This document shows, piece by piece, positions 2,939 to 24,537 of a stretch of 64,000 nucleotides of DNA (positions are counted from its first letter, which is position 1; every line of letters begins with the position of its first letter). The position numbers and the translations under genes are program-made. The DNA is from Dehalococcoidia bacterium (lineage in GTDB: Bacteria; Chloroflexota; Dehalococcoidia; UBA2979). A model generated the notes under the pieces. The model saw nothing but the letters and a program-made list of their open reading frames with translations. It did not search any database and was not told where the DNA came from. Location: NCBI GenBank assembly GCA_964291495.2, contig OZ219871.1:1408001-1472000 (forward strand), read 5' to 3'.

Positions 2939-3766
2939 ATGTCCTCCCCAATCTCCCCGCGACGCCTCGCGCTGCTCGTCGAGTACGACGGGACGGAGTT
3001 CTCCGGCTCGCAGTCGCAGCGCGGCCGGCGCACGGTGCAGGACACGCTGGAGGCCGCGATCGCCGACTACTGCGGCGAACCGTCCGAGGACGCGCCGAGG
3101 CGCATCACCCTCGCCGGGCGCACCGACGCCGGCGTGCACGCTCGCGCGCAGGTGGCCGTGATCGAATGCCCGCGCGCGGACGCCCTCGAGACCGTGCGCG
3201 ATGCCTTGAACCACTACCTCCCGGAGGACGTAGCCGTGCGCGCGGTCTGCGAGGTCGCGGCGGACTTCGATCCGCGCCGCGATGCGATCGCGCGCCGTTA
3301 CTGCTACCGCATCCGCGACGGCGGCACGCGATCGCCGCTGCGCCGCCGCGACGTCTGGCAGCGCCCGCACGCCCTCGATGCAGCCGCGATGGCAGCGGCC
3401 GCTGCCGCGCTGCCGCGCGGCCGGCGCGACTGGGCCGCCTTCGCCGGCGCGCCCGCCGGGGGCGGCTCCACGGTCCGCACGCTGACCAGCATGGCCGTGC
3501 GCCGTCGCGGCCCGCACGAGATCGAGGTCACGATGGAGGCCGACGCCTTCCTGCCGCACCAGGTGCGGCGCACCGTCGGCGCCCTCGAGCGTGTCGGCGC
3601 GGGCGCGCGCTCGCCGCGCGAGTTCGCCGCGCTCACCGACGCACCGGCGAGCAGCGTCGGCCCCACCGCGCCGCCGCAGGGACTGACGCTCGAGGCCGTC
3701 CGCTATCCCGCAGGCGCCGTCGAGTGGGGACTGGACCGCGAAGCCGAGCAGGGGATGGTGGCCTGA
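2939..3766 (+). CDS. truA: tRNA pseudouridine(38-40) synthase
   Basis: EYDGTEFSG, AGRTDAGVHARAQV, FLPHQVR, TAPPQGL; ATG at 2939 after the rplQ stop. Confidence 0.95.
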   Translation: MSSPISPRRLALLVEYDGTEFSGSQSQRGRRTVQDTLEAAIADYCGEPSEDAPRRITLAGRTDAGVHARAQVAVIECPRADALETVRDALNHYLPEDVAVRAVCEVAADFDPRRDAIARRYCYRIRDGGTRSPLRRRDVWQRPHALDAAAMAAAAAALPRGRRDWAAFAGAPAGGGSTVRTLTSMAVRRRGPHEIEVTMEADAFLPHQVRRTVGALERVGAGARSPREFAALTDAPASSVGPTAPPQGLTLEAVRYPAGAVEWGLDREAEQGMVA

Positions 3767-22930: not shown

Positions 22931-23078
22931 GGAGCGCGGTCGGCCGCAGGCCTCGGCGCTCCGCTATGATGCCGCCCGACGGCGGTCGGCGAACGCGCGG
23001 GCAGGCAAGCGCCGGCGCTGCGTGAGATACTGGATCCAGGCCCGGCGGGTGCGGGCGATCGAAGGGGGAATGCACGTC

Positions 23079-23405
23079 ATGGCGATGCCTACCGACACGA
23101 CGGACGCGACGTTCAACTCGGACGTGATCGAGAACGACGACCCGGTGCTGGTCGACTTCTGGGCGCCCTGGTGCGGCCCCTGCCGCATGGTCGCCCCGAT
23201 CGTCGAGGAACTCGCCGAGGAGTACGACGGTCGCGTCAAGTTCGTGAAGCTCAACACCGACGAGAACCCGATGACCGCCGGCCAGTACGGGATCCGCTCG
23301 ATCCCCACGCTGCTCGTCTTCAAGGGCGGCGAGCCGGTCGGCCAGATCATCGGCTTCCGCCCCAAGGGCGACCTCGCGAAGCAGCTCGACGCCGCCCTCG
23401 CGTAG
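23079..23405 (+). CDS. trxA: Thioredoxin
   Basis: DFWAPWCGPC, IRSIPT; SD-like gaagggggaa before ATG 23079. Confidence 0.97.
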   Translation: MAMPTDTTDATFNSDVIENDDPVLVDFWAPWCGPCRMVAPIVEELAEEYDGRVKFVKLNTDENPMTAGQYGIRSIPTLLVFKGGEPVGQIIGFRPKGDLAKQLDAALA

Positions 23406-23495: not shown

Positions 23496-24059
23496 TCAGA
23501 AGTACTTCTCGGCGCCGCCGTAGCCCAGCTGCCGCCCTTGCTCCGTAGCCCTGATGAAGCTCCGCACGCGGCTCTCGAACACCTCCGGGCGCGCCCTGCC
23601 GACATCGATGTACGCCACGCGGATGCGGCGATACGCATCCGAGAAGCCCTGGTAGTGCGCCCACGCCCGATCGTTCGCCCGGATCGCGTCGAGGATGTCG
23701 TCGGGGAACACGAACTCCTCGCGCAGCACCTCCTCGACTGAGGCGCGAACCGAGGGGTGCAGGAGCCCTTCGCCGGCAAGCCAGCGCAGCCGCTCCTTGT
23801 TCAGCTGCGAGTAGCGGCTGCCCCGCTTCCTCGGCGAGAACCGCTGCGCGGCCCGCAACTCGTCCGGCTTCTTGATGATGCTGTCGATCCAGCCGAAGCA
23901 GAGCGCCTCCTCCACAGCGTCGTTGTAGAGGATGCGCGGCTCGCCCGACGCCTTGTTCGGATACACGAGCCAGATCTCGCTCGCGCTGTCGAAGTTGGCC
24001 TCGAGCCACTCGCGCCACGCCCGGCGCTCGGTGACGTAGAGGGTCTCGCCGATCTCCAC
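23496..24059 (-). CDS. YdeI/OmpD-associated family protein
   Basis: WREWL, AVEEALCFGWIDS, RFSPRK...S.LNK. Confidence 0.88.
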   Translation of the reverse strand: MEIGETLYVTERRAWREWLEANFDSASEIWLVYPNKASGEPRILYNDAVEEALCFGWIDSIIKKPDELRAAQRFSPRKRGSRYSQLNKERLRWLAGEGLLHPSVRASVEEVLREEFVFPDDILDAIRANDRAWAHYQGFSDAYRRIRVAYIDVGRARPEVFESRVRSFIRATEQGRQLGYGGAEKYF

Positions 24060-24093
24060 CGCGCTTGCCTCGGCGGCCGCGCGCCGACTCCCG

Positions 24094-24537
24094 CTACTTC
24101 TTCTCGATCTTGCGGCCCTGTTTCTCCTCGAGGCGCGCGAGGGCGCGGCCCTTGTCCGGGTGCGGGTCCTTCACGAGGCCGTAGATCTCGCGGCCTTCGT
24201 GGTCTTCTGGCAGGTGTTCGGTGATAGGAAGACCTTCCTCATCGCAGAACAGCAGTCAGTGGCAGTATTTGTACTTCTGCATCTCCTCGCAGGCGCAGAT
24301 CCAGGTGCTCCGCTTTACCTCTTCCTCTTTGTCCTCGTAGAAGTTGCAGGGGCAGAGCGGCCGCCCGAGGTCGTCCACGTGCTTGGCGAGGCCGATCACG
24401 AGGAACTCGGTGATCTCGCGCTGCGGGTGGAGGTATGAGCCGCTTTTCTCGGCGAATTTCTCGACGAACTTCCACATCTTCTGGAGCGATTCGTCGGAGG
24501 CCTGCATGCGGTCCGCATCGGTCGGTTGGTCGACCAT
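24094..24537 (-). CDS. Ferredoxin:thioredoxin reductase catalytic subunit, probable selenoprotein (UGA=Sec at 24256-24258)
   Basis: GLA...GRPLCPC...WICAC..MQKYKYCH-TGA-LLF; the frame stays open 53 codons after TGA to TAG at 24094-24096; SD ggagag before ATG 24537. Confidence 0.85.
24215..24255 (-). promoter_or_regulatory. Bacterial SECIS-like stem-loop
   Basis: After UGA: UGUUC/GAACA, GAU/AUC and AGGAA/UUCCU stems, GGUC apical loop starting 21 nt after UGA. Confidence 0.75.

Follow-up and report, generated by a model that had tools for sequence, protein, structure and literature searches.

The window analysed here, a 64,000-nucleotide stretch of a Dehalococcoidia genome (contig OZ219871.1), very probably carries a real, full-length selenoprotein gene whose 147-residue product, as read from the sequence, belongs to the catalytic-subunit family of ferredoxin:thioredoxin reductase (FTR). 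An earlier note on this DNA had proposed that the reading frame runs through an in-frame TGA to a TAG further on, and that selenocysteine (Sec) stands there in place of a redox-active Cys. Translation confirmed the frame: the TGA at 24256-24258 is the sole in-frame stop of 24094-24537 (- strand), lies just after ...EEMQKYKYCH, and is followed by an open frame that closes at TAG 24094-24096 (-), giving 147 residues in all. The ATG at 24537-24535 (-) is preceded by a Shine-Dalgarno-like GGAGAG at 24548-24543, 5 nt upstream, and this start occupies the same alignment position as the starts of the Cys homologs. We place Sec at residue 94 because TGA and Cys codons alternate at this column among relatives, because a stem-loop past the UGA is confined to the TGA forms, and because the genome holds the Sec machinery; the same observations support the Sec-for-Cys proposal of the earlier note. 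The features of the locus are collected in Table 1.

Table 1. Features of the predicted Sec-FTR gene and its surroundings, in positions of the window
Feature	Position	Strand	Basis
Predicted selenoprotein gene, FTR catalytic-subunit homolog, 147 codons + TAG	24094..24537	-	Translation, PF02943
UGA codon, predicted Sec residue 94 in C92-H93-U94	24256..24258	-	Alignment to FTR CHC, TGA/TGC/TGT in relatives
Cluster and redox motif region, C62-P-C64 ... C81-A-C83 ... C92-H93	24259..24354	-	Alignment
53-codon tail after UGA (LLFC..EGLPITEHLPEDHEGREIYG..DPHPDKGRAL..), lineage-specific C-terminal extension	24097..24255	-	Conservation
Cys98 codon (UGC), 4 residues past Sec	24244..24246	-	Goes with Sec forms
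SECIS upper hairpin, GAU-G-AGGAA / GGUC loop (24231-24234) / UUCCU-AUC	24223..24243	-	Minimum-energy fold, relatives
Possible extended lower stem, UGUUC...GAACA + G20-C44	24215..24251	-	Fold of the window, partly kept in relatives (weak)
Thioredoxin gene (WCGPC), convergent with the FTR gene, start codon uncertain	23022..23405	+	PF00085, 114.6 bits

The read-through product matched the PF02943 (FeThRed_B) profile over residues 18-101 (86.1 bits against a cut-off of 22, E = 2e-24), and the genomic match to this profile crossed the TGA uninterrupted. Among solved structures, the FTR catalytic chains from Synechocystis and Arabidopsis matched the same product at 41-42% identity (E about 1e-22), with C62-P-C64, C81-A-C83 and C92-H93-U94 aligned column for column to the CPC, CPC and CHC motifs of 1dj7_A and 7bzk_A, and with U94 falling on the second Cys of CHC in both the Synechocystis and the Arabidopsis FTR. 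In Synechocystis FTR, the redox pair is numbered Cys57/Cys87. Across 49 aligned homologs, the columns of C62, P63, C64, C81, C83, C92, H93 and C94 were invariant. The AlphaFold model (49 homologs) had a mean pLDDT of 89.7, with block means of about 77-93 in the tail, and Foldseek comparison of this model with 1dj7_A and 7bzk_A returned a probability of 1.00 and an rmsd of 1.7-1.8 Å over 88-89 columns (TM on the target, 0.74-0.75). By alignment, Cys62, Cys81, Cys83 and Cys92 occupy the positions of the four [4Fe-4S] ligands. The FTR nucleophile is described as the Cys 30 residues upstream of its partner (bioRxiv 10.1101/2022.10.17.512470), and this spacing identifies Cys64 as the predicted exposed nucleophile and Sec94, 30 residues downstream, as its predicted cluster-proximal partner.

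The solved FTRs 1dj7_A, 2pu9_A and 7bzk_A are heterodimers with a variable subunit (PF02941, FeThRed_A), whereas this profile had no match in the present organism's own genome (93.7% complete); a control Synechococcus genome did match. The enzyme therefore probably works without a variable subunit, and it may be, speculatively, that the conserved C-terminal extension takes its place. A thioredoxin gene lies about 0.7 kb past the FTR stop codon on the other strand, with an OmdA-family gene between them, and its WCGPC product is a likely substrate of the FTR homolog. We scanned one genome per species for relatives of the FTR gene and analysed the best 80 of the 249 loci found; a thioredoxin homolog occurred within 3 kb in 35 of these 80, all of them TGA forms. 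Thioredoxin synteny was accordingly rejected as a universal feature, being present at 35/80 loci only and at none of the 10 Cys-form loci.

A genuine selenoprotein might nonetheless reduce some other disulfide substrate, like the Methanosarcina disulfide reductases that depend on ferredoxin (4tpu) or the Desulfotalea glutaredoxin fusion 7pwe. The missing match to a variable subunit would fit such a role, as would the lineage-specific C-terminal extension, since the solved FTR chains cover just 83-89 aligned columns of the model and stop short of its C-terminal ~50 residues. The 45 of the best 80 loci with no thioredoxin gene within 3 kb point the same way, and thioredoxin could be served by two TrxB-like flavoproteins encoded in the genome (282.9 and 243.5 bits, below the curated cut-off of 343). 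However, the FTR catalytic chains are far closer to the read-through product (41-42% identity, E of 1e-22 and TM of 0.74) than are 4tpu and 7pwe, both at 23% identity with E of 1e-8 and 4e-3, respectively. Moreover, His93 of the CHC motif is retained, and the WCGPC thioredoxin is a convergent neighbour here, in keeping with the 35 related loci that have a thioredoxin nearby. We thus consider a different substrate unlikely and retain thioredoxin reduction as the preferred role.

The alternation of TGA and Cys codons that the earlier note had proposed as a check was borne out at the exact column: among the best 80 of the 249 relatives, the UGA position read TGA at 70 loci, TGC at nine and TGT at one. 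All of these 80 loci are from Chloroflexota/Dehalococcoidia MAGs except for one contig labelled Verrucomicrobia. Within the same genus, the gene was present in 17 of 18 other genomes, and all 17 copies (88-96% identical) had one in-frame TGA, with conservation reaching residue 146. Outside the genus but within the family, there are TGA copies as well as stop-free copies, and the stop-free sequences examined read CHC. In a 301-genome sample spread evenly across the class Dehalococcoidia, 75 genomes had a match at E ≤ 1e-30, comprising 42 with one TGA (the unpublished genome G444 included) and 33 without, the UGA column having been checked in the fetched genomes only.

Conservation continued past the UGA. 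In the tail, many amino-acid columns were 100% conserved among 74 distinct TGA forms, while the mean synonymous entropy over codons +14 to +49 was 1.02 bits; amino acids are thus fixed where synonymous sites vary, which identifies the tail as coding. The tail is joined to the N-terminal part in Cys homologs, and the full-length proteins in databases, up to 81% identical, are Cys forms with the same tail. The 53-codon tail is therefore kept as protein in TGA and Cys forms alike, as the proposed read-through had led one to expect. One position within it tracks the Sec column: four residues downstream (+4), 71 of the 74 distinct TGA forms carry Cys, and all 13 Cys forms carry Val. This Cys98 could act in the protein, or its codon could act in the RNA, where G20 pairs with C44; in the former case the +4 Cys, with its 71/74 occurrence in Sec forms against 0/13 in Cys forms, might supply an extra thiol that resolves or protects the selenium.

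When the Sec and +4 columns were masked for tree building, the TGA forms made up a single group explained by one change (support 98/94), although the alignment has few columns and the SECIS-constrained codons were left unmasked. The 70 TGA loci therefore represent one evolutionary origin, and part of the invariance of the hairpin core described below is inheritance. A separate Sec arrangement was seen at locus L139, which is a CPU-only form of FTR.

If the UGA were instead a true stop, the product would be a 93-residue protein with no second redox residue, and the downstream frame would be a decaying remnant, either of a pseudogene or of a recent nonsense mutation. Gene callers do end the gene there, and the top 120 database proteins include no full-length TGA form; the earlier note had anticipated this truncation by standard annotation correctly. 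TGA is also a common stop in this genome, terminating 653 of 1520 long high-GC3 open reading frames (ORFs). Against such a stop, purifying selection acts on the tail across the 74 distinct TGA forms, whose identity goes as low as about 65%, and the TGA has persisted in 70 of the best 80 loci at the single column that holds an essential Cys in homologs. Two further points on each side come from the hairpin and from the Sec machinery.

The earlier note had described a stem-loop directly after the UGA, consisting of UGUUC/GAACA, GAU/AUC and AGGAA/UUCCU stems with a GGUC loop 21 nt downstream. All of these elements were found, and the arrangement is identical to the minimum-energy structure returned by RNAfold; the upper hairpin begins 12 nt past the UGA and the GGUC loop 21 nt past it. 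The folding energy is ordinary (z = -0.99, with 36 of 200 shuffles folding equally well or better), which would be compatible with a true stop, and the hairpin is significant because of its comparison with relatives and not because of its stability. The GGAA-GGUC-UUCC sequence GGAAGGTCTTCC occurred at the same place in 69 of the 70 TGA loci among the best 80 of 249 relatives. The lone TGA locus without it, L105, lies on a contig with a coverage of about 1.2x and would be compatible with a stop.

Constraint on this element was evident at synonymous sites. Codons +7, +8 and +9 in the distinct TGA forms were GAA (73/73), GGT (73/74) and CTT (73/73), and their synonymous entropies (74 distinct TGA forms versus 13 Cys forms) were 0 versus 0.95, 0.10 versus 1.58 and 0 versus 1.16 bits, respectively. 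Elsewhere in the FTR gene of the TGA forms, Gly codons had 1.6 bits. The genome has a G+C content of 71%, and the hairpin codons ggt, ctt and cct, which the earlier note had called rare, indeed are so, with GGT making up 6.8% of Gly, CTT 3.6% of Leu and CCT 3.9% of Pro codons in the 1520 long high-GC3 ORFs (GAA, 11.5% of Glu). An invariant hairpin core at synonymous sites of the TGA forms only is difficult to reconcile with a decaying frame.

Pairing pointed in the same direction. In 59 distinct TGA forms, 85.2% of cells in the 8-pair upper helix were paired, while slid partners reached at most 56.8%, a control that favours the tested helix in that it was derived from one of the aligned sequences. 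None of 500 shuffles matched the observed pairing, both-side changes or covariation score of the upper helix. Changes on both sides were seen at pairs 22-42 (GC/AU), 24-40 (UA/CG) and 26-39 (CG/AU), and the number of compensatory pairs (three) was not above chance, being attained by 238 of 500 shuffles. The same columns in 13 Cys forms were 46.2% paired, no better than shuffles. Thus, the proposed SECIS holds as a hairpin that is conserved, in part covarying and confined to TGA forms (85.2% versus 46.2% paired). The lower UGUUC/GAACA stem was rejected as a consistently retained part of the SECIS: pair 15-49 did not form in 12 of the 17 distinct sequences compared, and the fold of some relatives is in a different register.

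Several searches for similar elements were also made. Scanning 24050-24400 against Rfam with E up to 10 gave two chance matches and no SECIS family. The genome-wide search for GGAAGGTCTTCC returned one copy besides that of the FTR gene (G000 C6:591124), which lies in an open frame (..ARKVFRTEW..) of common codons with no TGA upstream and was set aside as chance. The UGA context of selD also has hairpins, with sequences unlike the FTR hairpin, and so has no bearing on whether a SelB motif is shared. A simple pattern (TGA, 12-15 nt, a 5-bp perfect stem and a GGTN loop) gave one implausible match and missed the FTR gene itself, which makes it useless as a selenoprotein finder. SECIS elements of the E. 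coli fdhF type are hairpins within the coding sequence, with an upper stem about 11-12 nt after the UGA, a G that opens the apical loop and a bulged upper-stem nucleotide. The FTR hairpin has these features in common with them, differs from them in sequence and has a 4-nt GGUC loop on GGAA/UUCC. Conserved loop guanosines in bacterial SECIS elements are described in PMC2398784.

The Sec machinery that the earlier note had asked after was detected in full in the same genome, each component above its curated cut-off: selA (523.6 bits vs 267.9), selB (301.7 vs 242.25), selD (368.3 vs 125) and tRNA-Sec (77 vs 47), with selD itself carrying one in-frame TGA. Together with the evidence from the tail, the column and the hairpin core, this full set leaves a true stop at 24256-24258 very improbable. 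Since TGA ends 653 of the 1520 long ORFs, it is a normal stop in this organism and the code is not reassigned. That the UGA is decoded as one of the 20 standard amino acids (Cys or Trp, via a near-cognate tRNA or a reassigned code) would agree with the Cys found at this column in homologs and with a Sec assignment made from sequence, but is hardly credible given the hundreds of normal ORFs that end in TGA, the conserved stem-loop at SECIS distance with its loop-initial G, which SelB needs and plain read-through does not, and the presence of selA, selB, selD (with its own TGA) and tRNA-Sec.

Contigs from public runs, aligned at 85% likeness, were used to look at the codon in RNA libraries; such runs mix strains and relatives. 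One RNA-library contig spans the site with the TGA retained (run X18, record 9, 24143-24306), and loose contig ends read ...YCH-TGA-LLFV in two metatranscriptome studies (X18 and X19). No exact-match contig spanning 24256-24274 was among those listed. Part of the depth at 24256 is G on the + strand, that is, TGC on the gene strand, several instances being near contig ends. The earlier note had counted TGC or TGT in reads at this codon against its own reading; the bridging contig keeps the TGA, and some TGC is indeed present, coming from co-occurring Cys-form relatives. As RNA-library contigs possibly contain DNA and derive from relatives 85-95% alike and not from the present strain, they lend weak support only.

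On the reading that we favour, a selenoprotein FTR, Sec most likely replaces the Cys beside the iron-sulfur cluster and would form a Cys64-Sec94 selenenylsulfide. Following the standard bacterial mechanism, SelB with Sec-tRNA(Sec) would bind the hairpin (GGAA stem, GGUC loop) 12 nt past the UGA, and the ribosome at 24256-24258 would insert Sec as residue 94 and then translate 53 more codons. In FTR (PMC3838966), once the first electron has arrived, one of the two active-site sulfurs attacks the disulfide of thioredoxin and the other binds a cluster iron as its fifth ligand; a second electron then resolves the mixed disulfide. By analogy, the resting enzyme would hold the Cys64-Sec94 selenenylsulfide, and one electron from ferredoxin would cleave this bond. 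Cys64 would attack a thioredoxin disulfide, most likely that of the neighbouring WCGPC thioredoxin (we infer both donor and substrate), while selenium instead of sulfur would become the fifth ligand of the cluster iron, with an Fe-Se contact in the intermediate, until a second electron frees the reduced thioredoxin.

It is possible, though we would stop short of calling it probable, that this clade has placed Sec only at the buried, cluster-facing redox position and passes through a one-electron [4Fe-4S] intermediate with a direct Fe-Se(Cys) bond. If true, an iron-sulfur cluster would here have a natural selenolate ligand in an enzyme that is neither a hydrogenase nor a formate dehydrogenase. 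Taken with the CPU-only L139 and the double-Sec ocean form, it would also make FTR a family that has tried Sec at either or both positions. An FTR with selenium at the cluster-proximal position only may make the five-coordinate cluster intermediate, which has been much discussed, accessible to 77Se spectroscopy, and the single-Sec, Cys, CPU-only and double-Sec forms allow a natural comparison.

These findings also bear on annotation. A gene call that ends at His93 drops a residue essential for catalysis together with 53 conserved ones, and the same truncation is expected in every genome bearing this form, a TGA match having been found in 42 of the 301 Dehalococcoidia genomes sampled. Moreover, the GGAA-GGUC-UUCC hairpin may serve as a clean SECIS example for a phylum with large selenoproteomes: two of the top ten genomes in BSepDB are from Dehalococcoidia, and their selenoprotein genes number 49 and 46. 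The BSepDB main text and one supplement contain none of the terms 'ferredoxin', 'FtrB', 'COG4802' or 'FTR', and its web tables may well list such genes. Our literature search found no paper on a single-Sec CHU form or on Sec-FTR biochemistry.

The only NCBIfam match of the product was NF041072, the 'FtrB family double-selenoprotein', at 40.6 bits (35.5 in the genomic search) against a cut-off of 160, a cut-off reached by none of 201 sampled Chloroflexota genomes. The present gene has a TGC-encoded Cys64 and a single TGA in frame, and so differs from the double-Sec type. The existence of this model indicates that Sec-FTRs are known to NCBI curators and that the present gene lies outside that equivalog. 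The entry MBG54406.1, which was compared by its motif description only, has a CxU motif compatible with the CHU of the present gene.

We finally compared the gene with its known counterparts. The cyanobacterial and plant FTRs (1dj7_A, 2pu9_A and 7bzk_A) have the fold, the six Cys positions and the His in common with it, whereas they are all-Cys and end in a different C-terminus, Sec being a predicted feature of the present gene. The Chloroflexota Cys homologs (for example P0002 and P0003, 80-81% identical, and loci L042, L043 and L087) are nearer, having the same length, the CPC..CAC..CH motif and the tail, but they carry TGC or TGT for TGA, Val four residues on, varied synonymous codons and no hairpin. 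The earlier note had placed Sec-FTRs in marine metagenome surveys, and correctly so: Zhang & Gladyshev 2008 (PMC2398784) introduced a new selenoprotein family, that of the FTR catalytic subunit, from ocean (GOS) metagenomes, with two Sec sequences and 10 Cys homologs. The printed forms, however, have Sec at the first redox position. In Dataset S2 of PMC2398784, both printed GOS sequences have the CPU... motif; the complete one, CPU...CPC...CIU, is of the double-Sec type, each redox position being Sec. The GOS proteins and the present one belong to the same Pfam/COG family (COG4802, FtrB), have a UGA, predicted to encode Sec, where a redox-active Cys would lie next to the 4Fe-4S cluster, and have a SECIS predicted just 3' of the UGA. 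In contrast to the GOS forms with their Sec at the first redox position, the present gene reads CPC...CAC...CHU, with Sec predicted at the cluster-proximal position only, and it has a conserved 50-residue tail that the complete printed GOS sequence lacks. By its sequence, the gene thus appears to belong to a large single-Sec Chloroflexota clade of an already published kind of Sec-FTR, set apart from the printed examples by its predicted cluster-proximal Sec only, its conserved C-terminal extension, its spread through a large Chloroflexota clade and its nearly invariant SECIS.

The residue four positions after the Sec/Cys column largely separates the two forms of the ferredoxin:thioredoxin reductase (FTR) gene. 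Comparing this column (24244-24246 in the window, minus strand) with its counterparts in loci L022-L131, we found Cys in 71 of the 74 distinct TGA forms (U-L/M-L-F-C), including that of the window, and Val in all 13 Cys forms (C-L-L-F-V), a contrast that effectively counts as one event because the Sec forms make up one clade. The Cys of the Sec forms could act as a protein-level partner for Sec, or could reflect an RNA constraint through the G20-C44 pair. Val occupies this position in three TGA forms (L097, L115 and L105). L105 is also the only TGA form lacking the GGAAGGTCTTCC core of the predicted SECIS hairpin, its sequence there (3274-3333) reading GAGGATGGCGTGCCC. The locus has a long branch within the Sec clade, and its contig name indicates a coverage of about 1.2x; it may be a decaying copy or come from an error-rich contig.

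Besides the FTR gene, the window's own genome (G000) holds a single further copy of GGAAGGTCTTCC, at G000:C6:591124 (+). This copy falls in an open frame that encodes a membrane protein (..ARKVFRTEWTPLIGG..) and has no upstream TGA, and it was therefore judged a chance match. Outside the window, selD of the same genome (G000:C5:1608812-1609747, minus strand) also carries an in-frame TGA (..ASCGG-U-AGKLG..), by which its selenophosphate synthetase is predicted to be itself a selenoprotein; the hairpins present downstream of this UGA are not similar to the FTR hairpin.

Both forms were detected in G019, a single bin from the same family as the window's genome, with a Cys form (CHC) on contig C61 and TGA forms on C57 and, partially, C31; these copies are either paralogs or the product of mixed strains, the stated contamination being 2%. 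Farther homologs (61-63% identity) with one in-frame TGA, counted per match irrespective of alignment column, occur in family f24 (e.g., G396, G351, G303, G410, G423 and G473), together with FTR matches free of in-frame TGA in G232, G319 and G335. The TGA-bearing homologs may be deeper-branching members of the Sec clade or the outcome of a second origin. Among the Cys forms, one subgroup (proteins P0066-P0100; alignment A4, columns 132-146) carries about 15 extra residues (..DENGxWPExxLYLP..) between CPC and CAC; this insertion breaks the subgroup's genome-search matches into two pieces.

Among the best 80 of 249 relatives of the FTR gene, a thioredoxin gene was found nearby in 35 loci, and the intervening OmdA/YdeI-family gene was confined to the window's genus (8 loci).

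Genes neighbouring the FTR gene in the window
Feature	Position	Strand	Remark
Thioredoxin, WCGPC	23022-23405	+	Convergent with FTR gene
OmdA/YdeI-family gene	23496-24059	-	Between thioredoxin and FTR gene

A further FTR-like gene of Chloroflexota (CPU...CPC...CRC) was observed at L139 (G087:C292:3184-3459, minus strand) and L140 (G064), in which TGA occupies the first redox position, that of the nucleophile, but not the second. This gene scored 85-91 bits against the double-selenoprotein family NF041072, below the cut-off. A glutaredoxin/thioredoxin-like CPxS segment follows in the same frame, recalling the Grx-FDR fusion 7pwe of Desulfotalea.
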